Shown here: positions 18,288 to 57,030 of the stretch, piece by piece
Position numbering within the stretch: position 1 is the stretch's first letter
Layout: each line of letters starts with the position of its first letter
NCBI GenBank assembly: GCA_038318895.1
Contig: JBBQCS010000001.1
Span: 9,495 to 73,494 of the forward strand
Length of the DNA stretch: 64,000 nt
DNA from: Alphaproteobacteria bacterium
GTDB lineage: Bacteria > Pseudomonadota > Alphaproteobacteria > UBA11222
Direction: 5' to 3'
Made by a program: the position numbers and the translations under genes
Notes under the pieces: generated by a model
Database searches by the model: none
What the model saw: the letters and a program-made list of their open reading frames with translations, nothing else
What the model was told of the DNA's origin: nothing

Positions 18288-19065
18288 CGCGCACGGCGAA
18301 AAACATCACCTTGTTGCGGTACATGCCGCGCGTGAGGCGGGTGCGCTGGCCATGACGTATTTCGGCGCCGATTACGCGAAGTGGGAAAAAAGCAGAGATA
18401 ATCCGGTAACCGAGGCGGACTTTGCGGTTGACCTGCTGTTACGCCAACGTCTGCAGGCCTTCGGCTCCGGCTATGGCTGGCTTTCGGAGGAAAGCGTGGA
18501 CGACAACAGCCGCCGAACCGCGCGCCGGGTCTGGGTTGTTGATCCAATCGACGGCACCCGCGCCTTCATCCGTGGTCAACCGCATTTCGCCGTTTGTATC
18601 GCCTTGTTGGAAGACGGCAGGCCAATTTCCGCCGTGATATTTAATCCGGCGACGGATGAGCTGTTTGAAGCGTCGGAGGGCGGGCCGGCATTGTTGAACG
18701 GTGTGCGAGTTCAGGTAAGCGCGAAAGACAAGCTGCAGGATGCACGCATGCTGGCGTCAAAAGGCGTGTTTCAGCACGAACGCTGGACCAATCCGTGGCC
18801 CGCGATGCATGTGGAATCACGCAATTCCATTGCCTATCAGGTGGCCCTGACGGCGTCGGGACATTTCGACGGCTGTATGAACCTGTGGGGCGCTTATGAT
18901 TGGGATCTGGCGGCTGCGGATTTGATTTTGCGTTCCGCGGGCGGGCATATCACGGACCATACGGGTGCGGCCTTGCGTTTCAATCAGGACACCCTGCGGC
19001 ACCCGAGTATCGTTGCAGCAAACCCGGCGCTGCACGGTTTATTGCTGGAACGGTTGCAAGTATGA
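18280..19065 (+). CDS. Inositol monophosphatase-family phosphatase
   Basis: IMPase motifs WVVDPIDGTRAFIRG and WDLAA; the GTG start overlaps the pmbA end by 8 nt. Confidence 0.8.
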   Translation: MSDAHGEKHHLVAVHAAREAGALAMTYFGADYAKWEKSRDNPVTEADFAVDLLLRQRLQAFGSGYGWLSEESVDDNSRRTARRVWVVDPIDGTRAFIRGQPHFAVCIALLEDGRPISAVIFNPATDELFEASEGGPALLNGVRVQVSAKDKLQDARMLASKGVFQHERWTNPWPAMHVESRNSIAYQVALTASGHFDGCMNLWGAYDWDLAAADLILRSAGGHITDHTGAALRFNQDTLRHPSIVAANPALHGLLLERLQV

Positions 19066-21038: not shown

Positions 21039-21040
21039 GC

Positions 21041-37680: not shown

Positions 37681-38577
37681 TCAGCGAATGGCCCCCTGAC
37701 GATACAGGCGATATAATAGCTGGGGTGCGGCCAATATGGGGTGGCGGCGCTGCCAGGGGCGTAAGGCCAGGGCGTAACCTGAATGCCGCTCCACCTTCCA
37801 CAGCAGGTATTCCACACCACCTTCAAAGGTGAACGCCCCTTTGCAGAGGCGCTGGACGGACAGAATTTTACCGGCATAGCGCCTCAGCGCCCAAATGCCG
37901 CGTACCTGGTCTGACAGGCGCGGGAATTCTAATTCAAGCGCATTAAAAATGCTGTCATAATAGACAGGATCATTGTCATAAATAAGGTGCGGCCGGTTGC
38001 CGCGTTCCACCCGCAATTCTGCACCATAGGTGAGGGCGAAAAGCTGCGTCCAGAATACCGATGATGTGGTGGTCACAGGGTTACATTTAATCGCCCAACC
38101 GCATGCGGTGCGTGCAGCCTGGATCAACGCCGCAATCAGCCGTTTTTTTGCCGTATCGTCGGCGGCGTATAATAAGGATGAAGGCTGCGTGAAACGCGCC
38201 CACATGGTGGTGTCCAGTGCGTCCTGACGCACCCGCCGGGTGAACTGGTCCAGCGAAATTACAGTCACTTTCGCGGCTACCGCTTCGGCCGCGTCGCCCA
38301 GACGCATAAATGACACATCGGGTGGCAGCAGCCGGTTCATCAGGGAGCGGAATATTGATCCATGATAGTCGCGATACCGGTCCACCAATACATAAAAATC
38401 CAGGATGCCTCCGGGTTGATCACTGCGGCGGCAGGAGCCATAGAACAGGATGGCCTGTACGCTATTCCCATGGGCGGCCAGGATGGCGTCCGCTACTGTT
38501 TGGGCGGCGATACTGGGGGGCTGCGCCAGGGTGGATTCGATCAGCATTTTCAGGGCGTGGTCCGCGGCGCCGTTCAT
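37681..38577 (-). CDS. Nucleotidyltransferase-fold protein resembling Tam41/Mmp37 (mitochondrial-type CDP-diacylglycerol synthase family)
   Basis: NTase-like hG[GS]..Dh.h pattern (ILFYGSCRRSDQPGGILDFYVLVD). Downstream blocks (DYHGSIFRSLMNRL; KVTVISLDQF..TMWARFTQPSSLLY) resemble Tam41 as I recall it. The ATG overlaps the upstream kinase stop (ATGA). The family assignment is unverified. Confidence 0.4.
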   Translation of the reverse strand: MNGAADHALKMLIESTLAQPPSIAAQTVADAILAAHGNSVQAILFYGSCRRSDQPGGILDFYVLVDRYRDYHGSIFRSLMNRLLPPDVSFMRLGDAAEAVAAKVTVISLDQFTRRVRQDALDTTMWARFTQPSSLLYAADDTAKKRLIAALIQAARTACGWAIKCNPVTTTSSVFWTQLFALTYGAELRVERGNRPHLIYDNDPVYYDSIFNALELEFPRLSDQVRGIWALRRYAGKILSVQRLCKGAFTFEGGVEYLLWKVERHSGYALALRPWQRRHPILAAPQLLYRLYRQGAIR

Positions 38578-39521
38578 GGATGCACGAAATCCACTGTGCG
38601 GCGCGCGGAAAGCTCGATCAATCCGGAAGGTCCGGGATCAAACAACTCACCATCAACAGTAAAACGTGATGTCAGGCGCAGCGTCAGACGATCAGCGCTG
38701 CCACTACGGTATCCGGCGGCTTCCATCCATGGCCGGGGGCGTCCGCGCAGCACGGGCAACAGGGCCGCGGCCAGGCTTTTGGGCGGACCATTAATAGCCG
38801 TATAGCGGACGGCGCCGCCTTGTGGTCCCCAGAACGGGTTAAGCCCCAGGATGATCCGCTGCAAACTTGTCGCCAGCATAATAAACTGTTCACCTTCACA
38901 TATCTTGCCGCCATCGGCGGTCAGGACCATCGGCGTGCTGTCCCCCGCAGGGCCGCGTATGTTGCGCACAAGCATGGAAGCAATCGTCCATGCGACCGCC
39001 AGTCCGTGATACAGACCCAGCGCATTGGCTTCAGTTTGCGCCAGTTCGGTACCCGCCGAAAAGGCCCCTGCGCCAAAAAACAATCCGCAGATGGGCGCTC
39101 CGGGGCAATCCTTGCGGCTAATTTCCAATATGGGGCGGTGGACCCTCTTGCGGTCCAGCTCACCTTTCCGGGCGGCGTCCAGCACCTGCTGCAGCCCTGC
39201 GGGCCCGTGGCGCGCCGAGCCGACATCATAGGCGGCAAGATTGGTTTTGCCGCCTGGAATGATCGTCAGGGCCGGCCGCCATTCCGGATCAACCCGCCAC
39301 AACCCCGTAAGCACGTCGCGCACCGTGCCGTCACCGCCATTGATGGCGATGACATTCACGTCCTGCTGTTTGAAGCGGGTCAGGACGGTTAACAAATCGG
39401 TCTGTGTTTCGGGTTCGGCAAAGCCGGCCAGATGTGCGCACGCCGCGACATCGCGCAGCGTTGCGGGGCCGTGCAGGTTACGGTGGCTTTTCGGGTTGCT
39501 GATGATGGCCAGCCGGTTCAA
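38574..39521 (-). CDS. DAGK-catalytic-domain lipid kinase (YegS / sphingosine-ceramide-diacylglycerol kinase family)
   Basis: NGGDGTV motif. The likely TTG start at 39521 overlaps the TGA of the upstream gene (TTGA). The ORF track extends to 39617 but would then overlap the upstream CDS by 100 nt. Confidence 0.6.
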   Translation of the reverse strand: MNRLAIISNPKSHRNLHGPATLRDVAACAHLAGFAEPETQTDLLTVLTRFKQQDVNVIAINGGDGTVRDVLTGLWRVDPEWRPALTIIPGGKTNLAAYDVGSARHGPAGLQQVLDAARKGELDRKRVHRPILEISRKDCPGAPICGLFFGAGAFSAGTELAQTEANALGLYHGLAVAWTIASMLVRNIRGPAGDSTPMVLTADGGKICEGEQFIMLATSLQRIILGLNPFWGPQGGAVRYTAINGPPKSLAAALLPVLRGRPRPWMEAAGYRSGSADRLTLRLTSRFTVDGELFDPGPSGLIELSARRTVDFVHP

Positions 39522-40678
39522 GTCGCCAGCCAGGAGCGAATGGGTGCGCGGCGCAGTTTGCAGGCGACCGCCTGGGCAATCTGCACGAAATGGACGCCAA
39601 TACAGGCCAGCGTCCATACCGCGACAATAATCATGCCGATGTCCGGCCGGCCCAGCGTTGCGCCCGCCATGAGGATAACAAGATTGGGGTTGCGCCGCGC
39701 GTTTATTAGGCGAAAGCGGCTGTCAAAGGGCCGCCAGACATGCAGGGTGACGCCGAAAAACAGCTTGAAGGCGCCCTCTTGCAGGCGCTGAAATACATAG
39801 CCGCCGATCACGATGGCGGCAATGATTTCGCCCTGCCACAGGCTGCCCCCTGCACTGCTGATGCCAACAATCCACGCCCAATACCAGAATGGAGGATGAA
39901 CCAGATCAATGCCATGATCGAATATGTTGCCGAAGGCGCTGGAATTGACCGTCACCCGCGCCAGTTTGCCGTCCACCGTATCCAGAAATGTCATGCCCCA
40001 GGCCGCCACCAGGCCCCACCCGAACAGGCCGCCAGCGAACAGGAAATACGCCATTACCGTCAGAACGGCGCTGGCGGATGTTACCATATTGGGCGTAATG
40101 CCGGTTGCGGCGCAGGCGCGTGTGACATGATAGGCGGGCCACGGCCAGACATATTTTGTCACGATATCGGTAACGCCTTTATAGACGGCCCCAAAAAGAT
40201 GGCGTTCTATCTGGCCCTTTGTCGCAGCGGTTATGGGCATGACAAAGGCGGAAATGCGCTTTTTCACCTCATGGCTATAGTCCTCGGCCTCCGCCAGGGA
40301 CAGCGGCGTTGCGATGACGCCTTCGGGCAGGCCAGATGGAGCAAGCGGTAGATTTTGCTGTATCAGTTCAGCTATTGTCGGCGCGCTGTCGGCGGTGACA
40401 TGTGCCGCCACCACCTGACCAGAGGCGGGATCAAGCAGGTATTTCCCCGGGCTTGCAATGAGTTTGCGCAACAAATTCTCTTCGATGAGAAAACCTGCAT
40501 GGATCAGAACAACGAATGGCGCCCGTGCGGCCGAATCGGGCCAGGGGGCAATATCGGCTATGCCAAAGCTGTGCAGCGTCCGGGCAAGGCGGGTCGCCCC
40601 GTCCAGCCCCCAGACAGGTACGGGAGAATTGCCGATCAAACGGATCGCAGGATTTTGCACAGGGTCCGGGGCACGCAT
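39518..40678 (-). CDS. CDP-alcohol phosphatidyltransferase-family enzyme with a roughly 160-aa N-terminal soluble domain
   Basis: Complete CAP motif D-x2-D-G-x2-A-R-x8-G-x3-D-x3-D (LDTVDGKLARVTVNSSAFGNIFDHGID); about 6 TM helices in the C-terminal part. The N-domain has a weak NTP-transferase-like G-rich start (GNSPVPVWGLDGATRL). Confidence 0.75.
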   Translation of the reverse strand: MRAPDPVQNPAIRLIGNSPVPVWGLDGATRLARTLHSFGIADIAPWPDSAARAPFVVLIHAGFLIEENLLRKLIASPGKYLLDPASGQVVAAHVTADSAPTIAELIQQNLPLAPSGLPEGVIATPLSLAEAEDYSHEVKKRISAFVMPITAATKGQIERHLFGAVYKGVTDIVTKYVWPWPAYHVTRACAATGITPNMVTSASAVLTVMAYFLFAGGLFGWGLVAAWGMTFLDTVDGKLARVTVNSSAFGNIFDHGIDLVHPPFWYWAWIVGISSAGGSLWQGEIIAAIVIGGYVFQRLQEGAFKLFFGVTLHVWRPFDSRFRLINARRNPNLVILMAGATLGRPDIGMIIVAVWTLACIGVHFVQIAQAVACKLRRAPIRSWLAT

Positions 40679-40791
40679 CAGGCTGACGGCTTTCTACCAT
40701 TGGGGTGAAACCCCACTTATACTAATGGTGTGGAAAGAAAGCCAGTTGAAGCCGTATGATAGGCCGCTAATGCGATGCGTTTAGGAATTGT

Positions 40792-41601
40792 TTGACTATG
40801 GATATGAACTCTGACGAGAGGGTGGTTGCGTCTGACGCATCGTTGATTCGAAGCCCAACCTGTCCGGCCTGCGATGCGGCGGAGCGCAGACCGTATTACC
40901 GGCATGAGACGTGGGAGCTTTTTTCCTGCGAAGTGTGCCGGTTGATTTATCTTGATCCGATGCCGGGGCCAGCCACGCTGGCGACGATCTATCATGATGC
41001 GTATAACGGCGCGCAAACCGGCTACTTCACCAAAACCAGCTCGAAACTGCGCCGCAGTTCGAAGCGGCTGCGAATTATCCGGCGTTTTTCAAAAACCAGC
41101 GGCGGCAATTTTCTGGATGTCGGCTGTAATGGCGGGTTTATGGTAGAGGCCGCGCGCCGCGTCGGCTATACGGCCTGGGGAATCGATCCGGATCTTGTGT
41201 CACTGGAGTACGCGCGCGCACATTTTCCAGACAGTCGCTACTTCCACGGGGTGATTGACGAATTTGATCCCAGGGATAGCGTTGGCGCGGCTGTGCGGTT
41301 TGATATGGCCTATTGCTCCGAGGTGATTGAGCATGTGCCGCAGCCACAGGCTTTTCTGCGTGATATAAATCGGCTGCTGAAGCCAGGCGGCGTACTGTAC
41401 CTGACGACGCCGGATATTTCCCATTGGCGGCGGCCGCGCCGGCTGGAGAACTGGGATGGGTTCTGCCCGCCATCCCACTTGTTGTATTTTAGTCCGGAAA
41501 ATCTGATTGCTCTTGCGCGGCGCAGTGGCTTTGAACTGCTAAGCCGCCGTCCCGCATGGAAGCCGGGTGTTAAACTGGTGTTGCAACGGCCTCAACGCTA
41601 A
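40792..41601 (+). CDS. Class I SAM-dependent methyltransferase with an N-terminal CxxC..CxxC zinc ribbon
   Basis: CPACDAAERR..CEVCRL is followed by motif I (FLDVGCNGG) and motif post-I (AWGIDPD). Confidence 0.7.
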   Translation: MTMDMNSDERVVASDASLIRSPTCPACDAAERRPYYRHETWELFSCEVCRLIYLDPMPGPATLATIYHDAYNGAQTGYFTKTSSKLRRSSKRLRIIRRFSKTSGGNFLDVGCNGGFMVEAARRVGYTAWGIDPDLVSLEYARAHFPDSRYFHGVIDEFDPRDSVGAAVRFDMAYCSEVIEHVPQPQAFLRDINRLLKPGGVLYLTTPDISHWRRPRRLENWDGFCPPSHLLYFSPENLIALARRSGFELLSRRPAWKPGVKLVLQRPQR

Positions 41602-42424
41602 ACGCTTCTGCACATGTAAGCCAGCATGCCCCGCCGCCCGGCCGGCAATGCGGCGCTATGGCGCGCAATAGTTGAGACAAAAACTCCCACCCGTCTGCGT
41701 CCTGAACGAGATGATGGGTCAATAGACCGGTTGGCTCTTGCGGATCAAAGCCCCGCGGCAGAGGTTTCCCCAATACGAGTGTTCCTTTTGGTATTTGCGG
41801 GTGCAGGCGGCGTATGCGCAGCAGCGTGGTCAATTCCTCCAGCACTGTGTCGGCAGGGCGCAGGCACCGCCCGGTATGCCAGTCAATTGCGTCTATGTGG
41901 CTGTTGGTTTGTACCAGGCCAGGGACTGGCGTCCGATTTGGCGCCGGACGAAACGCCGACACACCATGATAGCCGATCCGCGGCAAATGAACGGCAAGAT
42001 CTTCATCCAGCCGATTCCATGGTGGCACAAATACGGGAAACAGCTTGCTGCCAAACATGTCCCGCAATAGCGACAGTCCCTCAGTGACTTCCGCGCGCAT
42101 TACCGCATTGTCCCGATGCGCGCCAAACTCAGCCCGCTTCCCGGTCCGCGGAGCATGGTTGATATGGGCATACCCATGCACAATAGGGGTGATGTTGTGG
42201 GCCTGTCCTATCATCTCCGGCAACGATGCCTCGGCCCGGCGCGGGACGACGGCCAGCGCCAGCGGCGCGGCAAACTTTTCGGTCAGTTCCAGCAATTGCG
42301 TCAGCGCTGCACTTCCGGTGGCCGCATCATCATCGCGCCACCACAGGCTGGCCGTGCGCCCCGCCTGCGCCCATGCACATAATTCCGCATCCAGTGCCTT
42401 CCAGGCATTTGCACTCTCAGGCAT
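41570..42424 (-). CDS. Polysaccharide deacetylase (CE4)-like protein, divergent
   Basis: WWRDDDA (TFDDG-like), HGYAH (HxxxH) and FVPPWNRL (RxPxG-like) blocks. The start overlaps the upstream GT stop by 8 nt. Confidence 0.45.
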   Translation of the reverse strand: MPESANAWKALDAELCAWAQAGRTASLWWRDDDAATGSAALTQLLELTEKFAAPLALAVVPRRAEASLPEMIGQAHNITPIVHGYAHINHAPRTGKRAEFGAHRDNAVMRAEVTEGLSLLRDMFGSKLFPVFVPPWNRLDEDLAVHLPRIGYHGVSAFRPAPNRTPVPGLVQTNSHIDAIDWHTGRCLRPADTVLEELTTLLRIRRLHPQIPKGTLVLGKPLPRGFDPQEPTGLLTHHLVQDADGWEFLSQLLRAIAPHCRPGGGACWLTCAEAFSVEAVATPV

Positions 42425-43613
42425 TCAGTTTCTCCTGAATGAAACGGGCCGTTACTGCCCCGCCATTCATGTCCGGCAGATACCGGGCGGTATTGTTTTG
42501 CAACATCGCCTGATCAATTGCAGCGGCCAGCGAGGCCGGACCTAAATCCGATTCCGGCACCACCACGGCAAGGCCTGCGCGCGTCAGAGCCTGCGCCCGC
42601 AATGTCTGCTCCCGCTCCCGCGCGGCGCCAAATGGGACAATCACTGCGGGCGTTTCAGAAATAGTCCTAGCCTGCAAAATATCCATTACTGTATTATAGC
42701 CCCCCTGGCTAACCGAACAGGCGCAGTTGAATAGCATTTGCGGAAAATCCGGCCGCGCTGTTTCAACCACTAGGCCTTCCGGCGCTTTGTCCTGCAGCGC
42801 CTGCCGTTGACCATCCGGTGCATTGCGACCGATTAATAACCGCCATAATTTTCCCCTCGCTTGTGTTGAAAGCGCGCGCGCCTGCAGGGCTGCTGTCATT
42901 AATGCTTCACCCACCGCGCCCCCTCCGGCAGATATAATAACTTCATCTTTACCAACAATGCCTGTAGGCGGGTGTTGTGCGTAAGGCGTGTCCGCCGTCA
43001 CATAGCCTGTATAGACTATTTTGCCGTTCAGTTCGGCTGCCGCCGGATAGCTTTCTTCCAGGCGAATGAAATTCGCGTCCCCGTGCACCAGTATATGATC
43101 AAAATAATTCCGTGCGTGGGTGATGGCTTCGTCTGTCCGCCCGGGCTTGTCAGAAGGAACCAGAATGTCACGCACAGAGCACGCGACGAGCGGCGCGGGT
43201 CTGCGCTTGCGGGCTGCTTCCAGCAACGGCAGTAATTCGAAACGGAACTGTCGCCGCCCGAATGGAAACATTTCGATCAGCAGCATATCGGGCGCCAGAT
43301 TGGCAAATGCCTGTAGCAACACAGTTTGGCGGTGGTGGCGCCAGGCGTCGTCGATGGGTTTGCCTTCCTGATTCAGCAATTTCGAAAACTCGGCGTCGGC
43401 GGTGCGAACCGGGGCAAGCTGGATTATATTCGCGCCATGCGCGTCACTATGGGGATATGGCATACCACCGCTGACAATGGTTACCGCCATCCCCGCATCC
43501 TGCAGGCGCCGGGTCAATCGCAGGGCGCGCTCCAGATGACCAATGCCGAGCAGATGCTGCACATAAAACATAATCTGTTTAGGGACGAATATATCATCCA
43601 TGTTTGCTCTCAA
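42417..43613 (-). CDS. GT-B glycosyltransferase (GT1/GT28-like, COG4671 type)
   Basis: The N-terminal FYVQHLLGIGHLERALRLTRRL matches the GT28/GT1 N-domain G-loop + His pattern. It is a paralogue of the 46604..47863 gene. The start may be at 43601. Confidence 0.55.
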   Translation of the reverse strand: MRANMDDIFVPKQIMFYVQHLLGIGHLERALRLTRRLQDAGMAVTIVSGGMPYPHSDAHGANIIQLAPVRTADAEFSKLLNQEGKPIDDAWRHHRQTVLLQAFANLAPDMLLIEMFPFGRRQFRFELLPLLEAARKRRPAPLVACSVRDILVPSDKPGRTDEAITHARNYFDHILVHGDANFIRLEESYPAAAELNGKIVYTGYVTADTPYAQHPPTGIVGKDEVIISAGGGAVGEALMTAALQARALSTQARGKLWRLLIGRNAPDGQRQALQDKAPEGLVVETARPDFPQMLFNCACSVSQGGYNTVMDILQARTISETPAVIVPFGAAREREQTLRAQALTRAGLAVVVPESDLGPASLAAAIDQAMLQNNTARYLPDMNGGAVTARFIQEKLNA

Positions 43614-44190
43614 ACGCCATATTCAGTGCAACCGGAACAACAGTCCCCCCCGCACTTGCATCGAACAGATGGACGGCGTTCCAGGCCAGTTCAACTGGCG
43701 GATTTCCCAGCATATCCCAGTCATAGGCCAATGCGAGCGCCGCGCGGATGACGCCCTTATGGGTCATCGCCGTAACCGGCCGGCCGGGATTGGCGATGTC
43801 TTTGAACCAGGACTTTAGCCGCGCCCGTACATCGGCGGGGGATTCGCCGCCGGGAGGGCGAAAATGCAAGCCGCGGTCTTCGTTTTCCTGCATTGCGCCT
43901 CCGTAACGCGCGCGCAGATCACTCAGGGTTTCACCTTCCCATTCCCCCCAATGCATTTCTATAAGCCTCGGCTCTATCGCGAACGCACCGGGGCCTAGAA
44001 TACGCGCCGATTCAACCGCGCGGCGAAGCGGACTGACATGCCAATGGCTGTTGCGCAAGGCCGCGGGAACCCCAAGCCCCTGTAGTTCGCGGCGGCCCTC
44101 CTGGCTAAGCGATATATCAGCGTGTCCCTGCATACGGCCATCCCTATTCCATTGGGTCGGGCCATGACGGATGAAAGCGACAAAGGTCAT
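43594..44190 (-). CDS. Histidine phosphatase (phosphoglycerate-mutase family)
   Basis: RHG motif FIRHGPTQWN plus downstream His. The ATG at 44190 is 7 nt after the upstream GT4 stop. Confidence 0.7.
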   Translation of the reverse strand: MTFVAFIRHGPTQWNRDGRMQGHADISLSQEGRRELQGLGVPAALRNSHWHVSPLRRAVESARILGPGAFAIEPRLIEMHWGEWEGETLSDLRARYGGAMQENEDRGLHFRPPGGESPADVRARLKSWFKDIANPGRPVTAMTHKGVIRAALALAYDWDMLGNPPVELAWNAVHLFDASAGGTVVPVALNMAFESKHG

Positions 44191-44197
44191 GGAAAAA

Positions 44198-45358
44198 TCA
44201 CGACCGGCGCCACAGCCGCGCCCAACGGCTGCGCGGGCGGGCCTGTTGGCGAAGTCTGACGGCAACCAGTCCTGCGTTCAAAATAATTGCAGCCTTTTCC
44301 ATGCTGCGCATACTGTGGACAAACCGTTTTCCGGTTTCGCCCATGGTGTGACGGACCCCGGCGTCGGAGATCAGAAAGTCGATAACCCCCGCAAAGGCCT
44401 CCGCATCACCCTCCGGGGTAAGAAAGCCGGTTTGTCCATCCAGCATTACATCCGGAACGCCGCGCACCCTGCCAGCGACAACCGGCAGGCCGGACGCCTG
44501 CGCTTCCAGCAGCGCCATGCCATAGGCTTCGCCCGCAGCCGGCCATACATATATGTCGGCAGCCGCATATATGCCGGGCATCTCAATCTTCTGGCGCGCG
44601 CCCCTGAACTGAAGCCGATCCTGTCCGAGCGGGGCAAGCGCGGCCTCTACTTCCGCGCGCGCGGGACCATCCCCCACAATGGTCAGGCGCCAATCCTGGT
44701 GTTTCAGGAGTGCCAGACAATCCGCCAGCCTGCGGTAACTTTCCGCTTTATCCCCTGGCCGCATCATACCTACTGCCAGCAACCGGAGCGGCTCTTCGGG
44801 AAGCGGATCATTGCGCGGCTCCGCGGCATAAGGTCTGGGGTCGAGAAAGGGCGGCAGGTCACGATGAATTTGCACCGGATCAAGAACTGCTTCCAGACCC
44901 TCCGCATCAATGCTGGTCATGGAAAAAATCAGATCAGCAGTTTTGATCGCCAGTTCGGAGCCCCTGTGTCCTATGGCCCATGGGCCTTCTGCCCGGCTTG
45001 CGGCATAAGAGGCTTCCGCCACCACATAGGGAATGCCCAGCGCCCTGGCCACAGCGGGCCCGATCCAGTCGGGCGACTTGTAATAGACGTGATAGCTGAA
45101 CCATAATTCCGGCTGCTGATCTTTCGCGCGCGCGCGATAGCGTTCAATAAGCCGCGCGGCCTCGCGTTCCGCGCCTTTTAAGAGAGTTTCCTGCTGCGCA
45201 GGGTCACCTATGCCATCATAGGCCCGGAACGACGAAGCGACTTCCACTTCATGGCCACCCATGCCCAGCGCGGTGATGAGCAGCCCCGCCATTTCCCTGT
45301 CGCCCGAAGGGGTCAGATCGTCGGGCGCTTTCATCGGTGCATAAAATGCTATGCGCAT
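44198..45358 (-). CDS. Glycosyltransferase family 4 (GT-B, retaining)
   Basis: E-x7-E motif (EAYGMALLEAQASGLPVV) and Glycos_transf_1 C-domain. Confidence 0.8.
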   Translation of the reverse strand: MRIAFYAPMKAPDDLTPSGDREMAGLLITALGMGGHEVEVASSFRAYDGIGDPAQQETLLKGAEREAARLIERYRARAKDQQPELWFSYHVYYKSPDWIGPAVARALGIPYVVAEASYAASRAEGPWAIGHRGSELAIKTADLIFSMTSIDAEGLEAVLDPVQIHRDLPPFLDPRPYAAEPRNDPLPEEPLRLLAVGMMRPGDKAESYRRLADCLALLKHQDWRLTIVGDGPARAEVEAALAPLGQDRLQFRGARQKIEMPGIYAAADIYVWPAAGEAYGMALLEAQASGLPVVAGRVRGVPDVMLDGQTGFLTPEGDAEAFAGVIDFLISDAGVRHTMGETGKRFVHSMRSMEKAAIILNAGLVAVRLRQQARPRSRWARLWRRS

Positions 45359-46611
45359 ACGGGCTCACCATTGCTGGCGGTAAAACGCCTTACTAACTCA
45401 TCAATTGTATGTTGCATCTGAAAGCGGGTTTCCAGCCGTATCCGGCCCTGTCTGCCCATTTGCGCGCGGCGTTCCGGATCCCGGATCAGTTGTTCCAGCG
45501 CAATGGCCAACGCCTGCGCGTCATCTGGCGGACATAACAGTCCCGTCTCGCCGTCGATGATAAATTCAGGAATAGCCGACAGGTTACTGCTGACACAGGC
45601 CAGGCCCTGACTTTGCGCCTCCAGCAGGACGTTAGGGATGCCGTCGCGATCGCCGTCCGGACCGACCCGGCAGGCAAGCGCGAACAGATCGCTCTCGCGC
45701 AGGGCGCTGATGACCGCATCCTGATCAACGGGGCCACCCCAGATGATGGACGCGCCAAGCCCAAGATTTTGCGCCTGCTGTTTCAGTGCCGTCAGCTCCG
45801 GCCCGCCGCCAAGATGCTGAAACCGCCAATGCAGTTCTCGGGGCAACAGCGCCAGGGCCTGCAATAAAGTGTCGAAGCCTTTTTTCACGACCGCCCGCCC
45901 GACACTGATCAGTCGTACTGCAGATTCCGGTGTACTGCCGTCGCGGCTGAAATGCGCAGCAGGTGGGGGGGGAAAGCGCGCGAGGTCAAGCCCGTGGTAT
46001 ACCAGTTCGACGTTAGCTGTTCGTTGCGGTGTGCGCAGTTCATTGAGATAGCCGGTCCCTGCGGCTGTACAACTGACGCCCCAGGCGCAACTGCCAAGTT
46101 TTTCACGCAATTCCCAGGCCGGCGTCGTCCAGATATCCTTTGCATGGGCTGAAAAGCTCCAGGGAAGTCCGCGCATTATCGCCGCGTAGCGGGTGACCGA
46201 TCCCGGTGTATGCAGAAAATGCGCATGCAGATGGCGGACTTTCCCGTCCAGTTCACTGGCCAGCACCAGCGCCTGGGCAAAACGGCGGCCGCGATTGGGT
46301 GTCAGATCGCGGCGCAGATCGCGCAGCCAGATCCGCAGCGCCCGGGAATAGCCCGGCAGCCGCCGCGCCGCAAACCAGCCGCGCAGCACCCGCAACGGAT
46401 CATCGCGCAGATATTCCGGCAGGTAATTTACCGGTGCGGTAATATCCCCGTGCATGGAATGGGACCTGGTGTCGGTTGGGTGGCGTAACGAAAAAATCAC
46501 AATTGGCACGCCACGTTGTTCGAGCGCCAGAATTTCCTGGGCAATAAAGGTTTCTGAAAGTCTGGGATACCCCTTCAGCACAAATGCAATCGTGGGGCCG
46601 GCGCTAGGCAT
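45349..46611 (-). CDS. Glycosyltransferase family 4 (WcaL-like)
   Basis: GT4 C-domain (GIPNVLLEAQSQGLACVSS, EFIIDGETGLL); overlaps both neighbours by 8-10 nt. Confidence 0.8.
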   Translation of the reverse strand: MPSAGPTIAFVLKGYPRLSETFIAQEILALEQRGVPIVIFSLRHPTDTRSHSMHGDITAPVNYLPEYLRDDPLRVLRGWFAARRLPGYSRALRIWLRDLRRDLTPNRGRRFAQALVLASELDGKVRHLHAHFLHTPGSVTRYAAIMRGLPWSFSAHAKDIWTTPAWELREKLGSCAWGVSCTAAGTGYLNELRTPQRTANVELVYHGLDLARFPPPPAAHFSRDGSTPESAVRLISVGRAVVKKGFDTLLQALALLPRELHWRFQHLGGGPELTALKQQAQNLGLGASIIWGGPVDQDAVISALRESDLFALACRVGPDGDRDGIPNVLLEAQSQGLACVSSNLSAIPEFIIDGETGLLCPPDDAQALAIALEQLIRDPERRAQMGRQGRIRLETRFQMQHTIDELVRRFTASNGEPVCA

Positions 46612-47863
46612 GGCGGCGTTTATCCGTTGAATGACGCCGAGTGCGTCTGGTTTCCGGTTTAAGCGAAGACGCCGCGATATCCGCCATCCTTGAGAGACCG
46701 TCGTTGATCCCTGTAATGGCGGTCCGAGAGGGTGGCGCCTGATTGGGCAAGGCCAGAAGCGCCGTCAGCATCACCTCGGGGTCTCGCACGCCGGTGCCGT
46801 TATGCGAAGGATCTGCCAGCATGGCAACCAAACCGCGATCGCTTGCGCGCCGGGCGCGGATGGTTTGTTCCAGACGTGGCGCCGAACGCGGCACAATCAG
46901 CGCTGGCTTGTCACGCGCCAAAATCTCGCAAAAAGTATTGTAGCCCCCCATCGCCACAATGGCTGTCGCGCCGGCCTCAAACTGTTCAATATGGCTATCG
47001 AATGTGAGTATTGTGATTGCCGGTAAAAGCACCGCGCGCGCGGTGAAGGCGGCCTGCGCATCCGGGTTCATAAATGGTCCAAGCACGATCAGCGCAGGCA
47101 GGGGCGCGGGGCCCGCGCGCAATGCGCTAAGCTCATACGCCGATAGCACCCAGTCTATCAGTTCTTCGCCATCACCGCCGCCGCCGGTTGTCACTAATAG
47201 ATAAGGGTTTCTGGTGACCTCCGGCCATACCATGGCGGCAGGCGCGGACGGTAGGGGTGTGCACAGGTACCCGGTATAGGTAATCTTGTCGGCCACCATA
47301 GCTGGAATGGAAACGCCGTCCAGGGGGGCATAGATATCCTGCATACCGTATACCCAAATCTCGTCATAAAGATCTCGCAGGGCGGGGAAGGCTTTTTTGC
47401 GTTGCCATTCCGCCGACAGCCTTGCTGGTTCATCCAGAATATCGCGCAGACCAAGCACCAGCTTTGTGCCGCGCGCCTTGAGCATTTCCAGGGTGGACGC
47501 CACCTCTCCGCGTAATCCCAGCGGTTCTTTGTCGACAATAAATAAATCCGGCGCGAAAATATCTGCTGTGTGCTGGATGATCGACTGGCGAAGCGCCAGT
47601 GTTTCAGAAATATCAAGGTGCAGGTTAAGTGACGTATATTCGCCATTGCGCAATTTGATCACACCGGGCACCCGGATAAAATCCACCCTGGCCCGGAAAT
47701 CGAAACTGCCGATAATCGGCGAGCCGGAAAGGATTAACACCGAAAGTTTGGAGTAGTTCTCAACCAGCGCATGGGCAATAGCCCTGCAACGGCGCAAATG
47801 CCCGAGGCCAAATGTGTCGTGACTGTAGATTAAAACCCGTGATCCGGATTTTCGTGCCGGCAT
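46604..47863 (-). CDS. GT-B glycosyltransferase (GT1/GT28-like, COG4671 type), first gene of the operon
   Basis: N-terminal RVLIYSHDTFGLGHLRRCRAIAHAL and C-terminal GGYNT block; paralogous to 42417..43613. Confidence 0.55.
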   Translation of the reverse strand: MPARKSGSRVLIYSHDTFGLGHLRRCRAIAHALVENYSKLSVLILSGSPIIGSFDFRARVDFIRVPGVIKLRNGEYTSLNLHLDISETLALRQSIIQHTADIFAPDLFIVDKEPLGLRGEVASTLEMLKARGTKLVLGLRDILDEPARLSAEWQRKKAFPALRDLYDEIWVYGMQDIYAPLDGVSIPAMVADKITYTGYLCTPLPSAPAAMVWPEVTRNPYLLVTTGGGGDGEELIDWVLSAYELSALRAGPAPLPALIVLGPFMNPDAQAAFTARAVLLPAITILTFDSHIEQFEAGATAIVAMGGYNTFCEILARDKPALIVPRSAPRLEQTIRARRASDRGLVAMLADPSHNGTGVRDPEVMLTALLALPNQAPPSRTAITGINDGLSRMADIAASSLKPETRRTRRHSTDKRRHA

Positions 47864-47988
47864 CGTATTTAATGTTTCCTTGAGCGTTTTTAACTTAAAC
47901 CGGGCCGTGCCGCCCTTATGGCGCGAGTAGATTAAAACAACCTATGCTAAACAAATAGTAACGGGCGAATCAGCCGGTTGCGCCGCAC

Positions 47989-50793
47989 ATGAATGTGACA
48001 GAGCAGCTTAAATCATTCTACTATGATAAAATTATCCTTTTGCTAAAGAGTTCCCATCACGCAATGGATCCCAGTATTTTCAAATATATCTGGCGCTATA
48101 GTCGGCAAAGCCAGCTAGTTGTTCTGGCGTTGGTGTTGGGATCATTGCCATTTTATTTCCTGATGCTTGATCTGCCGCGCGCCATTGTCAACGGCCCGAT
48201 CCAGGGCAAGGGCTTCGAAACCTCTGATGCGACTGCGACTTTCCTGAGCTTTTCATTTGCTATGCCCGGTTTCCTGCAATCGCTTTTCGGAACAGCAAAA
48301 TCGACCATTTTTGAGGGGTTTGAACTTGCTCGCGAGCCTTATCTTCTGGCGCTGAGCTGTTCTTTGTTGCTGCTGGTCGCTGTCAACGGGATATTCAAAC
48401 TTCAGATCAATACCCTGAAGGGGCGTATGGGCGAACGCGTGCTGCGGCGTTTGCGCTATCAATTGTTTGACCGGATATTACGGTTCCCGACTGCCCATGT
48501 GCGCAAGGTACGCCAGGCCGAAGTGGCGTCGATGATCAAGGACGAGGTCGAACCGCTGGGTGGATTTATCGGTGATGCGTTTGTGCAACCGGCATTTCTG
48601 GGTGGCCAGGCGATCACGGCCCTGCTGTTCATCATGATCCAGAGTTTCTGGTTGGGGCTTGTGGCGGGTGCTGTCGTCCTGGCGCAGGCCTTTATCATTC
48701 CCAAGCTGCGCCGCCGTATTCTGGAGCTTGGCCGTCAGCGGCAACTGGTGGCGCGCCATCTTGCCGGGCGTGTTGGCGAGGTCGTCGAGGGGGCGCTGGA
48801 AATTCATGCGCACGACACCTCGCATTATGAACGGGCCGAAATCACCGGCCGTCTGGGACAGATTTTCCGGCTGCGCTTTGAAATTTACCGCCGCAAGTTT
48901 CAGGTCAAGTTTCTCAATAATACGCTGGCCCAGGTTACGCCATTCATCTTTTATTCTGTGGGCGGATATTTTGCGATCCGGGGCAGAATGGATATCGGCC
49001 AGCTTGTTGCGGCGCTGGTTGCCTACAAGGAGCTTCCAAGTCCGGTCAAGGAGCTTATCGACTGGGATCAGCAGCGTCTTGATGTGCAGATCAAATATGA
49101 AAGTATTATCACTCAATTCAACCCTGACGGCATGATCGCGCCGGAACTACAGGACCCGGACGCCGATGACGATGCGCCGCTAACGGGAATGTTGAACGCT
49201 TCACGCATCACGCTTGAAGATGACGCCGGGGTAAAATTGCTGGATGGCGTGTCATTTACATTTGACGTCCGGTCCCATGTGGCGATTACAGGGCCGGTAG
49301 GCGGCGGACAGGATTATCTGGGGCTTGTTCTGGCGCGGCTGATATTCCCCAATAGCGGAAAACTAAGCATTGGCGGGCGTGACACGGCGTTATTGCCAGA
49401 GGCGGTAACAGGACGGCGTATTTCCTATGCGGGCAGTGATTCAATCCTGTTCCCACGTAGCGTACGCGAAAACATGTTGTACGGGCTAATGCATCGCCCG
49501 CTGACGCCGCCGGTAATTATTGAGGAGGATCCACGCCAAGAGGCCATGGAACGTAGTGAAATCCGGCGTTCGGGAAACTCCCGGTTTGATCTGCGCGCCG
49601 ACTGGATTGATTATGCCGCCGCCGGAGCGCAAGGCCCCTATGATATCGATAACCAGATTGCGGCTGCGCTGGATGCTGTCATGATGGAAGAGGATGTCTA
49701 TCAACTTGGTTTGCGCGGCTGCATCAATCCGGAAGATCACCCGTCACTGGCCGAGAACATATTGCAGGCGCGGAAAGCGCTGCTCGAAATGCTCCGGGAT
49801 CCAGAATATGCGGCGCTGGTGGCGCCATTCGATCCCGAACGCTATAACCATAACGCGACATTAAGTGAAAACCTGCTGTTTGGAACTGCTGTTGGCACGG
49901 CCTTTTCTACGGTCAACCTGATTGGAAATACCTATTTTCAGTGGGTGCTGGAGGAATCTGGCCTCACACCTGAATTGCTTCGAATGGGTTTCGCCATTGC
50001 TGAAACCATGGTCGAGCTTTTTGCGGACATTGCGCCGGGGCATCCGTTTTTCGATCAGTTCAGCTTTATCGCTTCCGACGATTTGCCGGACTATCAGGAG
50101 ATCGTGCATCGCGCGGGAAGGATTGCGCTCGAGCAACTTCCAGAGTCAGATCAGCGGCGTCTGGCCGCCCTGACGCTGGATTATGTCGAGGCCCGTCACC
50201 GTCTTGGGCTGATTGACGCCGCTCTGGAGCAGAGGGTGCTGACAGCGCGCCGTCTTTTTGCATCGCGCCTGCCGGCCACCTATCGCGGGGCGATAGAAGT
50301 TTATGACCCTGAAAAATACAATTCAGCCGCGACCCTGCTCGATAATATTCTGTTTGGGCGTGTGGTCTATGGACTGGCGGAAGCGCAATCGCGTATCGGA
50401 GTGTTGATCGGCGAAGTGGTGGGGCAGTTAAATCTGCGCTGGGAAATATTCAAAATAGGCTTGAACTTTAACGTGGGAGGACGCGGACGGTTCCTGAGCA
50501 CCATCCAACGCCAGAAACTCGCGCTCGCCAAGGCAATCCTGAAGCGTCCCGATCTGCTTGTGGTGAATGACGCAATTTCGCTGCTGGACGTGCGAAGTCA
50601 GCAGCAGATCCTGCACAACATCAAAACTTATTGCGATGGGCGGGGAGTTATCTGGATCGGTGGACAACCGAACCTGGGCCGGAATTTTGACCAGGTTTTG
50701 GTGATCGAGGACGGAAAAATTGCCGAGCAGGGCGAATTCGAGCAACTGTCACTGAATGGCAAGTATCTGCCGCAACTGCTCGCCGTTGGGTAA
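47989..50793 (+). CDS. ABC-exporter-like protein: type I TMD fused to a degenerate, insertion-containing nucleotide-binding domain
   Basis: Six N-terminal TM helices with an ABC-exporter-like layout. The NBD motifs are all present but altered: Walker A GPVGGGQDYL (no Lys/Ser), signature LSTIQRQK (for LSGGQ), Walker B LLVVNDA (for hhhhDE), H-loop IGGQP. About 330 aa are inserted between the Q-loop region and the signature. An alternative start is at 48064. Confidence 0.6.
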   Translation: MNVTEQLKSFYYDKIILLLKSSHHAMDPSIFKYIWRYSRQSQLVVLALVLGSLPFYFLMLDLPRAIVNGPIQGKGFETSDATATFLSFSFAMPGFLQSLFGTAKSTIFEGFELAREPYLLALSCSLLLLVAVNGIFKLQINTLKGRMGERVLRRLRYQLFDRILRFPTAHVRKVRQAEVASMIKDEVEPLGGFIGDAFVQPAFLGGQAITALLFIMIQSFWLGLVAGAVVLAQAFIIPKLRRRILELGRQRQLVARHLAGRVGEVVEGALEIHAHDTSHYERAEITGRLGQIFRLRFEIYRRKFQVKFLNNTLAQVTPFIFYSVGGYFAIRGRMDIGQLVAALVAYKELPSPVKELIDWDQQRLDVQIKYESIITQFNPDGMIAPELQDPDADDDAPLTGMLNASRITLEDDAGVKLLDGVSFTFDVRSHVAITGPVGGGQDYLGLVLARLIFPNSGKLSIGGRDTALLPEAVTGRRISYAGSDSILFPRSVRENMLYGLMHRPLTPPVIIEEDPRQEAMERSEIRRSGNSRFDLRADWIDYAAAGAQGPYDIDNQIAAALDAVMMEEDVYQLGLRGCINPEDHPSLAENILQARKALLEMLRDPEYAALVAPFDPERYNHNATLSENLLFGTAVGTAFSTVNLIGNTYFQWVLEESGLTPELLRMGFAIAETMVELFADIAPGHPFFDQFSFIASDDLPDYQEIVHRAGRIALEQLPESDQRRLAALTLDYVEARHRLGLIDAALEQRVLTARRLFASRLPATYRGAIEVYDPEKYNSAATLLDNILFGRVVYGLAEAQSRIGVLIGEVVGQLNLRWEIFKIGLNFNVGGRGRFLSTIQRQKLALAKAILKRPDLLVVNDAISLLDVRSQQQILHNIKTYCDGRGVIWIGGQPNLGRNFDQVLVIEDGKIAEQGEFEQLSLNGKYLPQLLAVG

Positions 50794-50826
50794 GGCCACG
50801 GTGAATACAAAATATGAGACATATGA

Positions 50827-51294
50827 ATGCCGCTAAATGACGAAGTGGAACTGTTGCGGAAAGTGTTGCTGTTTTCCGGTATCGAACCCGCAAAGCTGAA
50901 ACTGCTTGCCTTTACCAGCGAGCGCGTGAATTTCGCCAAAGGCCAAAACCTGATGCGGCAGGGAGAGATGGGTAATGCGGCCTATTTGATATTGAGCGGC
51001 GAGGCGGATGTTCTGGCCGATGCAGGTGGCGGCCCGGTTAAGGTGGCAAGCGTGGGCCGAAACGACTTTGTTGGTGAGATGGCTATCTTGCGCGATCAGC
51101 CGCGCACCGCTACTGTCGTCGCCGCGACAGAAGTCTCTACCCTGAAGATCACGAAAGAAAGCTTCTTGCAGCTTATCCAGGATAGTCCGAAAATCGCTAT
51201 AGAACTGACGCGGATTCTCGCACAGCGGCTTGAAACGACAACAATCGATCTGACCAGCGCCAGGGAAAAACTGCGCGCTGCCGGAATCGAATGA
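50827..51294 (+). CDS. Stand-alone cyclic-nucleotide-binding (CAP-effector) domain protein
   Basis: 155 aa with the cNMP-binding beta-roll (GEMGNAAYLILSGEADV ... GEMAIL..RTATV) and no DNA-binding HTH. Confidence 0.75.
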   Translation: MPLNDEVELLRKVLLFSGIEPAKLKLLAFTSERVNFAKGQNLMRQGEMGNAAYLILSGEADVLADAGGGPVKVASVGRNDFVGEMAILRDQPRTATVVAATEVSTLKITKESFLQLIQDSPKIAIELTRILAQRLETTTIDLTSAREKLRAAGIE

Positions 51295-51782
51295 AATTAA
51301 TGCAGGGGAAAACCAACGTGACAAATATGATCGATCCGGCGACATTGCCGCCCAATATTCAGGCGATTTTGCGCAAGCCTTCCCCCGCCAGCCAGTATCT
51401 TGGCCTGGAGTTTCTGGAATGCGATCCGCAAAAAGGCCATGTCAAAGTGGCGTATCAGGCCAGCGATCAATTGTGCAATTTATGGGGTGGTATTCATGGC
51501 GGCATGGTTGCCGCAATCATGGATGATGTGCTTGCTCTGACCTTCGGCCTGACCATTGCCTGGGGACAGATCACCCCGACACTGGAATTGAAAACCACCT
51601 TTCTGCAGGCGGCCCGTCCCGGGCGGCTGCTGGCCGAGGGGGTTATACTGCGCCGCGGCAAGTCAATCAGTTTCGCCGAAGCGGAACTGCGCTCGGCAGA
51701 CGGAGAACTGCTTGCCAAGGCAAGCGCGACCGCAAGTATTGTTACTTTGAAGCCCAAAGACGGTTCAAAGGCCAAGGATTAA
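51291..51782 (+). CDS. PaaI-family hotdog thioesterase
   Basis: HGG motif (GGIHGGMVAAIMDDVLA); the ATG overlaps the upstream TGA (ATGA). Confidence 0.75.
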   Translation: MKLMQGKTNVTNMIDPATLPPNIQAILRKPSPASQYLGLEFLECDPQKGHVKVAYQASDQLCNLWGGIHGGMVAAIMDDVLALTFGLTIAWGQITPTLELKTTFLQAARPGRLLAEGVILRRGKSISFAEAELRSADGELLAKASATASIVTLKPKDGSKAKD

Positions 51783-51838
51783 GGCGGCTCACATTTTTCT
51801 GGTTCTAGAGTTTCCCTATAAAACAGCCTATTGAGACG

Positions 51839-52708
51839 TTATCCCTGGCTGGAAAGCCAGTCGCGCAGGATTTCGTTGACCCTTTCCGGCGCTTCCTGCT
51901 GCACCCAGTGGGAAACCCCCGGCAAATAGTGGATGGTGAAATCTTCGACCAGTTCTTCCGTACCGAAAGTCAACTCCTTGCCCAGCGCGGTGTCTTCGTC
52001 GCCCCAGATCATCAGGGTCGGGGTGGATAGCTTACCCGGCACCCGCGCCTCCTTTGGTTTCGCGCCGCGCAAAGCGGCTCGGTAATAATTGATCATCGCA
52101 GTCAGCGCGCCGGGTTGTGACGCGTTGCGCTGAAACACCTCCAGCACCTCGGGGGGAAAGCGCGATTTGTCCACCGCCATAGTGCTGAATGCCTCCCCAA
52201 CACCGCGTGCGCCATTGCGCCCCAGGCCCCATTCGGGCAACCAGGGAATCTGAAAGAAAAACACGTACCAGGAGCGTTTCAGTTGCGCCCAGTGCCGCAC
52301 CCCCTGGGCGAACAATTTGGGATGGGGAATATTCATCACCACCAGCTTCTTCAGTGGCCGGATGTTACGCAGCGCAAACTCCCAGGCGATCACGCCGCCC
52401 CAATCATGCGCGATCAGCACAACCTCTTCCGCCCCGGAAGCGTCGATCAGTCCGGCGACATCGGCCAGCAGATGCGGCATGGCGTAATTCGCGACCCCGG
52501 CTGGCCGGGAGGTATTGCCGTAACCGCGCATATTTGGCGCCCAGACCAGATAGCCCATCTCCGCCAGCATCCGCAATTGATGCCGCCAGGAATAGGAATG
52601 CTCGGGAAATCCGTGCAGACACAGCGCCAGCTTCTTTCCGCTGCCGCACATATCCACTTCAAAGTGCAGGCCGTTGGCCTCGACAATTTCAGTCCTTGGA
52701 GCTTCCAT
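51839..52708 (-). CDS. Alpha/beta hydrolase (epoxide hydrolase / haloalkane dehalogenase-like)
   Basis: LHGFPE (HGxP) oxyanion motif and IAHDWGG nucleophile elbow. Confidence 0.8.
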   Translation of the reverse strand: MEAPRTEIVEANGLHFEVDMCGSGKKLALCLHGFPEHSYSWRHQLRMLAEMGYLVWAPNMRGYGNTSRPAGVANYAMPHLLADVAGLIDASGAEEVVLIAHDWGGVIAWEFALRNIRPLKKLVVMNIPHPKLFAQGVRHWAQLKRSWYVFFFQIPWLPEWGLGRNGARGVGEAFSTMAVDKSRFPPEVLEVFQRNASQPGALTAMINYYRAALRGAKPKEARVPGKLSTPTLMIWGDEDTALGKELTFGTEELVEDFTIHYLPGVSHWVQQEAPERVNEILRDWLSSQG

Positions 52709-57010: not shown

Positions 57011-57030
57011 AAATGGCGTCACTATGGTAG

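Follow-up and report, generated by a model that had tools for sequence, protein, structure and literature searches.

The operon that we analyzed lies at 41570-47863 on the minus strand of a 64,000-nucleotide stretch (hereafter, the window) from an alphaproteobacterium of the GTDB lineage UBA11222 (GenBank assembly GCA_038318895.1, contig JBBQCS010000001.1, positions 9,495 to 73,494), and its six genes encode four glycosyltransferases (GTa, GT4a, GT4b and GTb), a histidine phosphatase (HisP) and a deacetylase-like protein (DAc). The complete set, collinear and in the order GTa-GT4a-GT4b-HisP-GTb-DAc, is found in 35 of the 55 alpha- and betaproteobacterial species loci that are informative, and because the same order recurs so often, the arrangement is far beyond chance. 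Its conserved partners are an unusual ATP-binding cassette (ABC) exporter, a small cyclic-nucleotide-binding (cNMP) protein and, elsewhere, an importer; the lipid operon that adjoins it in the window is a local neighbor. We tentatively read the operon, with somewhat less than even confidence, as a cytoplasmic pathway independent of Wzx/Wzy, whose product, exported by the ABC protein, would be a short oligosaccharide or glycoside that is de-N-acetylated in part and may be methylated.

Gene order and enzymes of the operon

A scan of species-representative genomes yielded at least 580 confirmed loci, and all neighborhood counts rest on the 80 loci that were kept: gene order was scored in the 55 with enough downstream sequence, and upstream neighbors in 64 informative loci. 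Conserved partners were found by all-against-all clustering of open reading frames (ORFs) across loci, together with gene calls on long contigs. The operon in the window comprises, from its first gene:

GTa, 46604-47863, minus strand: 419 amino acids (aa); weak Glyco_tran_28_C match; first gene of the operon and the best conserved of the six
GT4a, 45349-46611, minus strand: 420 aa; Glycos_transf_1 (Pfam, E 2e-32)
GT4b, 44198-45358, minus strand: 386 aa; Glyco_trans_1_4 (Pfam, E 4e-29); belongs to the accessory module GT4b-HisP-DAc
HisP, 43594-44190 (198 aa, start ATG 44190; preferred) or 43594-44265 (longest ORF, 223 aa), minus strand: His_Phos_1 (E 6e-38)
GTb, 42417-43613, minus strand: 398 aa; weak Glyco_tran_28_C match; start at TTG 43613 or ATG 43601
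DAc, 41570-42424, minus strand: 284 aa; the single sequence is without a Pfam or NCBIfam match; CE4/DUF2334-type

An original prediction, made from the letters of the window without database searches, had described these genes as one operon in which all neighbors overlap by 7-20 nt. The six minus-strand ORFs have exactly the limits that it gave them, and a single, tightly packed operon is borne out both by the recurrent order and by overlaps at four of the five junctions: 8 nt between GTa and GT4a (ATGCCTAG), 10 nt between GT4a and GT4b, 8 nt between HisP and GTb if the latter starts at ATG 43601 (20 nt from TTG 43613), and 8 nt between GTb and DAc. The description fails only at the fifth junction, where GT4b and HisP overlap (by 68 nt) solely if the upstream TTG is taken as the HisP start. 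Because HisP homologues begin, in the alignment, 7 residues ahead of the RHG motif, and because gene calls in relatives give 198-aa proteins starting 4-8 nt past the GT4b stop, ATG 44190 is the more likely start, which would leave a 7-nt gap after GT4b. No product of the operon contains a transmembrane-like segment or a hydrophobic N-terminus, and all six enzymes are predicted to be cytoplasmic.

The fold and family assignments of the original prediction (GT-B, GT4, histidine phosphatase and CE4-like) hold up against Pfam and, for DAc, against a structural model. GTa and GTb had been called paralogues with characteristic FGLGHL and GIGHL motifs; both motifs are present, the two proteins share an h-G-h-G-H-L-x-R loop, and an identity of 26% over 363 residues (E 3e-17) marks them as true but, by this alignment, distant paralogues. 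Against PF04101, GTb scores 35.2 bits (E 1.6e-8), over the cut-off of 22, and GTa falls just under it at 20.6 bits. The GTa family profile matched no solved structure by sequence; the structures nearest to GTa are those of GT1 enzymes with small-molecule substrates, and GT28 enzymes are further off.

Both GT4a (112.6 bits) and GT4b (102.3 bits) far exceed the Pfam cut-offs of 26-27 and thus belong to CAZy family GT4 (Glycos_transf_1), and the alignment between the two is confined to their C-terminal domains. The closest solved structures are BshA, PimB', SPS and PimA for GT4a, and MshA (the best), BshA and SPS for GT4b, in each case over the donor-binding domain only. GT4a also matches the NCBIfam model EpsE over its full length, far under the cut-off, as well as WcaL.

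HisP is a branch-1 histidine phosphatase (His_Phos_1, 130.8 bits against a cut-off of 21.7), and 46 homologues share its RH(G) motif, the arginine of SPLxR, a glutamate and the distal histidine. It had been likened to the glycosyl-phosphoglycerate phosphatases of the GpgP type, and this likeness stands at the level of the superfamily but not as a specific relationship: Mycobacterium tuberculosis GpgP (4pz9) is matched at E 1.4e-12, more weakly than the best solved relative, a Thermus alpha-ribazole phosphatase (4e-16), and PhoE (3e-15). Its best NCBIfam match is TIGR03162 (CobC), whose 107.3 bits (E 6e-31) lie under the cut-off of 162.9 and outside that family.

The assignment of DAc draws on its homologues and its predicted fold. 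WWRDDDA, HGxxH, PPWN, HxD and THH are invariant in an alignment of 30 homologues, of which 23 match DUF2334 weakly (best E 6e-7; the DAc of the window itself, E 0.017) and four match Polysacc_deac_1 (PF01522), also weakly. A sequence search against solved structures returned no match to DAc. Its predicted model (pLDDT 94) resembles CE4 deacetylases in Foldseek at a TM score of about 0.5 and 12-16% identity, the matches including acetyl-xylan esterases, peptidoglycan and chitin deacetylases, and ArnD. As modeled, then, DAc appears CE4-like by fold and is not a demonstrable member of the CE4 family. Neither a signal peptide nor a transmembrane segment is present in it. Because their catalytic motifs are intact, both HisP and the metal-dependent DAc look active.

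Conserved partners, and a lipid operon that is not one of them

One group of conserved companions of the operon lies upstream of GTa, on the opposite strand. Their counterparts in the window, with the gene that converges on the operon from its other side, are:

Control region, presumed shared, 47864-47988, unstranded: 125 bp that separate the divergent genes for GTa and the ABC exporter
ABC exporter, 47989-50793, plus strand: divergent; ABC_membrane and weak ABC_tran (Pfam)
cNMP protein, 50827-51294, plus strand: 155 aa; PF00027 (E 6e-22), without a DNA-binding domain
Hotdog-fold (4HBT) thioesterase, 51291-51782, plus strand: PF03061 (E 4e-11)
Zn-ribbon methyltransferase dependent on S-adenosylmethionine (SAM), 40792-41601, plus strand: convergent; Methyltransf_23 (E 2e-29)

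The ABC exporter stands directly upstream of GTa, and divergent from it, in 39 of the 64 informative loci; the exporter and the cNMP protein are both found upstream in 42 of the 64, and where there is an exporter the cNMP protein almost always accompanies it (42 of 43 loci). The original prediction had missed both of these partners, as well as the importer that is co-operonic in other genomes. Their placement leads us to presume that 47864-47988 serves as a shared control region, a view taken from the gene layout only; scans of 40500-52000 for consensus promoters and terminators gave nothing above chance, and no promoter site could be placed in the intergenic region.

The exporter is a protein of about 900 aa with a transmembrane domain that matches PF00664 and a nucleotide-binding domain of unusual form. 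Its best NCBIfam match is MsbA, every NCBIfam match being far under its cut-off. Canonical ABC exporters carry a Walker A motif GxxGxGKS/T, a signature LSGGQ and a Walker B motif hhhhDE. In all 48 homologues that we compared, Walker A instead reads GxxGxG[K/R/Q][D/E], where an acidic residue replaces the Ser/Thr, Walker B reads hhhh[S/N/G][E/D/Q], without the Asp, and LSxxQRQK serves as the signature. Between the Q-loop region and the signature lies an insert of about 300 aa; it is without a Pfam match and is duplicated internally (residues 586-662 resemble 745-826 with 30% identity, E 2e-8). The cNMP protein has a sub-threshold match to TIGR03896, whose members bind cyclic nucleotides and are associated with bacteriocin-type ABC exporters.

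In 36 of 46 loci the gene after that of the cNMP protein encodes a Methyltransf_17 protein, and a hotdog thioesterase occurs there in some. The window has the thioesterase in this slot, as do its close relatives, and the start of the thioesterase gene overlaps the cNMP gene by 4 nt. Because the window contains no Methyltransf_17 homologue, the convergent Methyltransf_23 gene, which the original prediction had correctly recognized, may stand in for it here. This convergent gene is kept in relatives down to 72% GTa identity and occurs in only one of the 80 species loci. Its 3' end and that of DAc overlap on opposite strands by 32 nt (41570-41601), which leaves no space for a terminator between the two genes; the corresponding overlap in relatives is 20-35 nt.

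On the 3' side of DAc, a small membrane protein of about 179 aa that matches no family is present in 26 of 40 loci, and Pfam likewise gave no match to the small membrane proteins (158 and 175 aa) encoded after DAc in other genomes. A fused importer ATPase of the GsiA type follows in 37 of the 40. The importer is of the peptide/opine type, with the fused ATPase, a family-5 binding protein and two permeases; its genes are joined by 4-nt overlaps in two of the loci (L082, L084), and in Sinorhizobium and Rhizobium it is still attached to the cluster despite rearrangement.

A quite different relationship is seen for the adjacent lipid operon (37681-40678), which the original prediction had tied to the six genes as a lipid-headgroup operon, naming co-conservation of the two as a check. 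That check fails for adjacency: homologues of its CDP-alcohol transferase, its diacylglycerol-kinase-like enzyme and its 298-aa protein were found near the cluster in none of the 80 species loci. Adjacency extends only to close relatives, in which (at 87% and 78% GTa identity) the layout of the window is kept down to panB/panC; in a relative with 72% GTa identity, folC, accD and trpA occupy the place of the lipid operon. The 298-aa protein, labeled Tam41-like in that prediction, has no Pfam match. The CDP-alcohol transferases, for their part, are a widespread family.

Conserved neighbors of a different kind surround the lipid operon. In Stella humosa and on an Acidovorax contig, the CDP-alcohol transferase sits with a kinase and a 310-aa protein, all distant homologues, and this trio is flanked by LptF/G-like permeases, a metallophosphatase and nucleotidyltransferases, with none of the glycosyltransferases considered here. 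The trio in Stella is also near a class I/II aminotransferase, an acyl carrier protein, an epimerase-type reductase and an AMP-binding enzyme, a gene set that we take to be the bacterial set for ceramide synthesis (the spt cluster of Caulobacter), i.e., of the sphingolipid type. The kinase of the lipid operon presumably resembles ceramide kinase and may be that enzyme rather than a diacylglycerol kinase. The adjacency in the window is a local accident without a conserved link, and recognizing this keeps a wrong glycolipid label from being propagated.

The partners and the enzymes together form a modular system, with a core of GTa, GT4a, GTb, exporter and importer, and an accessory module of GT4b, HisP and DAc. 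This modularity is evident because one locus (L085) retains GTa with the exporter set and has none of the other operon genes, and because the loci of Sinorhizobium and Rhizobium are reduced. HisP alone is missing from eight of the 55 loci, every one of them betaproteobacterial. Relatives of GTa number in the thousands, and the best betaproteobacterial matches still exceed 60% identity; identity this high between classes (about 60%) speaks for a product that is specific and conserved. Carriers include Azospirillum, Inquilinus, Stellaceae, Dongiaceae, Kiloniellaceae, Rhodoferax, Nitrosovibrio and numerous metagenome-assembled genomes of Burkholderiales, and they span soil, water and plant-associated members of both classes, Sinorhizobium and Rhizobium among them. 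The copy in the window is an ordinary member of this large family of loci. A plasmid copy in Azospirillum oryzae consists of a lone GTa amid transposons.

The only true homologue that bears a name is the rhizobial redA/redB locus, found on pSymB of S. meliloti (L087; at about 837 kb in strain 1021) and on plasmid pA of R. etli CIAT 652 (RHECIAT_PA0000036-46, L094). GTa, GT4a and GTb are 51%, 52% and 44% identical to those of the window and the ABC protein 45-50%, and, as in other loci, there are a 900-aa ABC protein, a 155-aa cNMP protein and a PepT-type importer. Unlike the window, this locus is without GT4b, HisP and DAc, and all of its genes run in the same direction, in the order importer-GTa-GT4a-GTb-ABC-cNMP. 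Additional genes encode a UDP-glucose dehydrogenase and an adenylate cyclase and, in S. meliloti, a PF14099 polysaccharide lyase and an FkbM methyltransferase. The names come from database annotation alone, and a literature search for redA/redB in meliloti or Rhizobium found no publication and no function. The locus is distinct from the msbA2 operon, which lies at 938 kb, 100 kb away on pSymB. In S. meliloti strain ml21, the ABC gene is matched in two reading frames, suggesting a frameshift or a sequencing error.

A more distant variant (33% identity to GTa) is carried by an E. coli IncFIA/FIB plasmid (NZ_CP012498.1, 1547-11737; L095), and ten Escherichia plasmids match GTa. It combines a GT28-like enzyme, two GT4 enzymes, an ordinary 604-aa ABC exporter and two APH-family kinases with an outer-membrane protein of the alginate-export family and a nucleotide-sugar dehydrogenase. 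By analogy, this variant points to an exported glycan.

The proposed product and the competing explanations

The six genes would be the biosynthetic side of a widely distributed glycoconjugate system, and a dedicated pathway free of Wzx, Wzy and Wzz, as in the original prediction, is supported. Under the preferred reading, four soluble Leloir glycosyltransferases would assemble a short, defined glycan in the cytoplasm, GTa and GTb (GT1/GT28-like) acting as inverting enzymes and GT4a and GT4b as retaining enzymes, on an acceptor that would come from outside any Wzx/Wzy pathway. One residue would enter as an N-acetyl-hexosamine and be de-N-acetylated by the CE4/DUF2334-like DAc, and HisP may strip phosphate from a phosphorylated acceptor or intermediate, following by analogy the logic of SPS/SPP, MshA/MshA2/MshB and GpgS/GpgP. 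The divergent ABC exporter would carry the product across the inner membrane, with the stand-alone cNMP protein probably gating it. A methyltransferase probably decorates the product, in most loci the Methyltransf_17 enzyme and in the window the convergent Methyltransf_23.

The original prediction had left the product as either a glycolipid or a methylated and deacetylated oligosaccharide, and the second option fits the conserved neighborhood better, the first having leaned on the lipid operon. We favor a small soluble periplasmic or extracellular oligosaccharide or glycoside, open to recapture, over a membrane glycolipid, both because the binding-protein-dependent importer is co-transcribed and kept through rearrangements, and because small molecules are the substrates of the enzymes closest to GTa in structure. 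A more far-reaching version, in which a new small amino-oligosaccharide or glycoside is made, released under second-messenger control and then recaptured (as a signal, an osmolyte, or a metal or nutrient shuttle), strikes us as doubtful. If true, it would add a new class of periplasmic or extracellular glycans in hundreds of Alpha- and Betaproteobacteria, rhizobia included.

Several observations weigh against a pathway of this kind. The non-canonical Walker A, Walker B and signature motifs mean that ATP-driven export by the ABC protein is, as judged from its sequence, not assured. Neither the importer nor the 179-aa membrane protein was found in the window, and for this genome the window by itself gives no basis for recapture. 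The matches of the GT4 enzymes to MshA, BshA, PimA and SPS discriminate poorly and carry no evidence on the acceptor, and the full-length likeness of GT4a, under the cut-off, is to transferases for exopolysaccharide repeat units. Given the eight betaproteobacterial loci that are without HisP, the phosphatase step is dispensable or supplied elsewhere. Literature searches returned no publication that gives a product, donor or acceptor for any homologue; those on COG4671, or on the combination of phosphatase, glycosyltransferase, deacetylase and ABC protein, yielded nothing relevant, and those on DUF2334 with glycosyltransferases yielded only unrelated work.

The most credible of the competing explanations, though an unlikely one, is a membrane glycolipid: the glycosyltransferases would act on a diacylglycerol, phospholipid or ceramide, deacetylation would expose an amino sugar, and the MsbA-like ABC protein would flip the lipid, whose head group would in this lineage come from the adjacent CDP-alcohol-transferase/kinase operon. 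A GT4 enzyme with a flippase and a deacetylase of the COG3233 type (a family that we take to correspond to DUF2334) is a proven recipe for aminoglycolipids; DAc has its weak DUF2334 matches and a structural neighbor, ArnD, that uses a lipid-linked sugar, and MsbA is the best NCBIfam match of the exporter. The lipid operon, however, which adjoins the cluster here and in the relatives at 78-87% GTa identity, is missing from all 80 species loci and from the 72% relative, and its distant homologues lie in putative sphingolipid-type clusters without these glycosyltransferases. A co-operonic, binding-protein-dependent importer is hard to square with a membrane-embedded product, GTa is closer to small-molecule transferases of GT1 than to GT28, and against the GlcNAc-phosphatidylglycerol synthase model the two GT4 proteins score only 51 and 30 bits, the cut-off being 480.

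It is somewhat less probable again that the operon serves a surface or secreted polysaccharide, perhaps methyl-capped, built as a polyprenyl-diphosphate-linked glycan or on a primer made elsewhere and flipped in the manner of PglK or MsbA2. This explanation would account for the resemblance of GT4a to EpsE and WcaL, and the window does contain, at 18900-22165, a CapD/WbpM-like Polysacc_synt_2 dehydratase (712-aa ORF) followed by a PF00953 polyprenyl-phosphate hexosamine-1-phosphate transferase of the WecA/WbpL type. That priming gene (21041-22165), however, is 19 kb from the operon and was not seen near it in relatives. The UDP-glucose dehydrogenase of the rhizobial loci, the polysaccharide lyase of S. 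meliloti, and the alginate-export porin and kinases of the E. coli plasmid version would also suit a polysaccharide, and there is precedent in the msbA2 operon of S. meliloti, where glycosyltransferases and an MsbA-like exporter use primed intermediates of another pathway. Yet in the sampled alpha- and betaproteobacterial loci the cluster has no conserved association with a priming enzyme, a polymerase, a chain-length regulator or an outer-membrane exporter. As the original prediction had noted, the operon itself is free of Wzx, Wzy, Wzz and a priming enzyme, and the conserved neighbors add none of these, nor Wzm/Wzt. The cytoplasmic histidine phosphatase would have no obvious role in such a system, and a GTa identity of about 60% between classes is unusually high for a polysaccharide transferase.

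An intracellular compatible solute or cofactor-like glycoside (of the sucrose, mannosylfructose or GlcN-inositol type), made by a GT4 synthase and a phosphatase with or without the deacetylase, appears improbable. The transporters would then serve for uptake or for recapture of what leaks out, and not for dedicated export, which would agree with the co-operonic uptake system of most genomes; the GT4-phosphatase pairing, the matches to SPS, MshA and BshA, and the cytoplasmic location of all six enzymes would agree with it as well. But four glycosyltransferases exceed the needs of known solute pathways, the exporter-type ABC protein is the tightest-linked partner of GTa, and the rhizobial version drops GT4b, the phosphatase and the deacetylase while keeping both exporter and importer.

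That HisP is simply the alpha-ribazole phosphatase (CobC) of cobalamin synthesis, sitting by chance among glycosyltransferase genes, is very improbable because, whatever its likeness to TIGR03162 and the annotated Thermus enzyme and the presence 12 kb away of CobD/CbiB and a class I/II aminotransferase (55985-57981; possibly a threonine-phosphate decarboxylase), it reaches only 107 of the 163 bits set for the family and keeps a slot inside the glycosyltransferase operon, between GT4b and GTb, in 35 of 55 loci, with junctions that overlap or nearly abut.

Elsewhere in the window, an ORF at 29324-30358 matches Mito_fiss_Elm1 (PF06258, E 1e-106), a family named for a plant mitochondrial fission factor.

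The homologues in S. meliloti and R. etli make the question of the product testable in well-developed genetic systems, and the answer could bear on the biology of the cell envelope or of symbiosis. The transporter is of interest in its own right: its Walker motifs are altered, its insert is duplicated and the cNMP protein is separate from it, which together make an unusual architecture.

Comparison with known systems

Close parallels in biochemical logic are the aminoglycolipid systems gpgSDF of Pseudomonas aeruginosa, in which a GT4 enzyme, a COG3233 deacetylase and a flippase produce GlcN-phosphatidylglycerol, and hexSDF of Clostridioides difficile, which synthesizes an aminoglycolipid by the same recipe (PMC12713373). 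In these systems a cytoplasmic GT4 enzyme adds N-acetylglucosamine (GlcNAc), the COG3233-type deacetylase frees the amine and a dedicated membrane protein moves the product, much as is proposed here. They differ in having three genes and one sugar, a UPF0104-type flippase instead of an ABC protein, and no phosphatase; moreover, DAc is only weakly of the DUF2334 type and the GT4 proteins are far under the cut-off for GlcNAc-phosphatidylglycerol synthase.

A second parallel is offered by MshA-MshA2-MshB, SPS/SPP and GpgS/GpgP, in which a GT4 synthase acts on a phosphorylated acceptor and dephosphorylation follows, with de-N-acetylation by MshB in addition. MshA is the best solved relative of GT4b and M. 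tuberculosis GpgP a detectable relative of HisP, both at the level of the family only. In contrast to the enzymes of the operon, MshB is LmbE-type and not CE4-type, and SPP is HAD-type; none of the mycothiol, SPS/SPP and GpgS/GpgP pathways is known to include two further GT-B enzymes or an exporter of its own.

The synthesis of Nod factors (NodC, NodB, NodS and NodIJ) combines carrier-free assembly in the cytoplasm with deacetylation by a CE4 enzyme, SAM-dependent methylation and ABC export. The likeness is again one of logic only: NodC is a processive GT2 enzyme, NodIJ is another type of ABC transporter, and the NodA-like acyltransferase is absent here. The msbA2 operon of S. meliloti (SMb21188-21191), NdvA/ChvA and PglK likewise associate glycosyltransferases with an ABC exporter of the type-IV fold, for a glycan that is periplasmic or unidentified. 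MsbA2, NdvA/ChvA and PglK are regarded as ordinary ABC exporters, whereas the family found in the window departs from the canonical Walker A, Walker B and signature sequences and carries the duplicated insert of about 300 aa.

These comparisons, from gpgSDF, MshA/MshB and SPS/SPP to the Nod factor and NdvA/PglK, are of logic and not of membership. The gene combination of this family of loci has not been described for any characterized pathway, nothing in the locus contradicts established principles, and the system, as read here, is best called one of ABC-exporter-coupled cytoplasmic glycan assembly.

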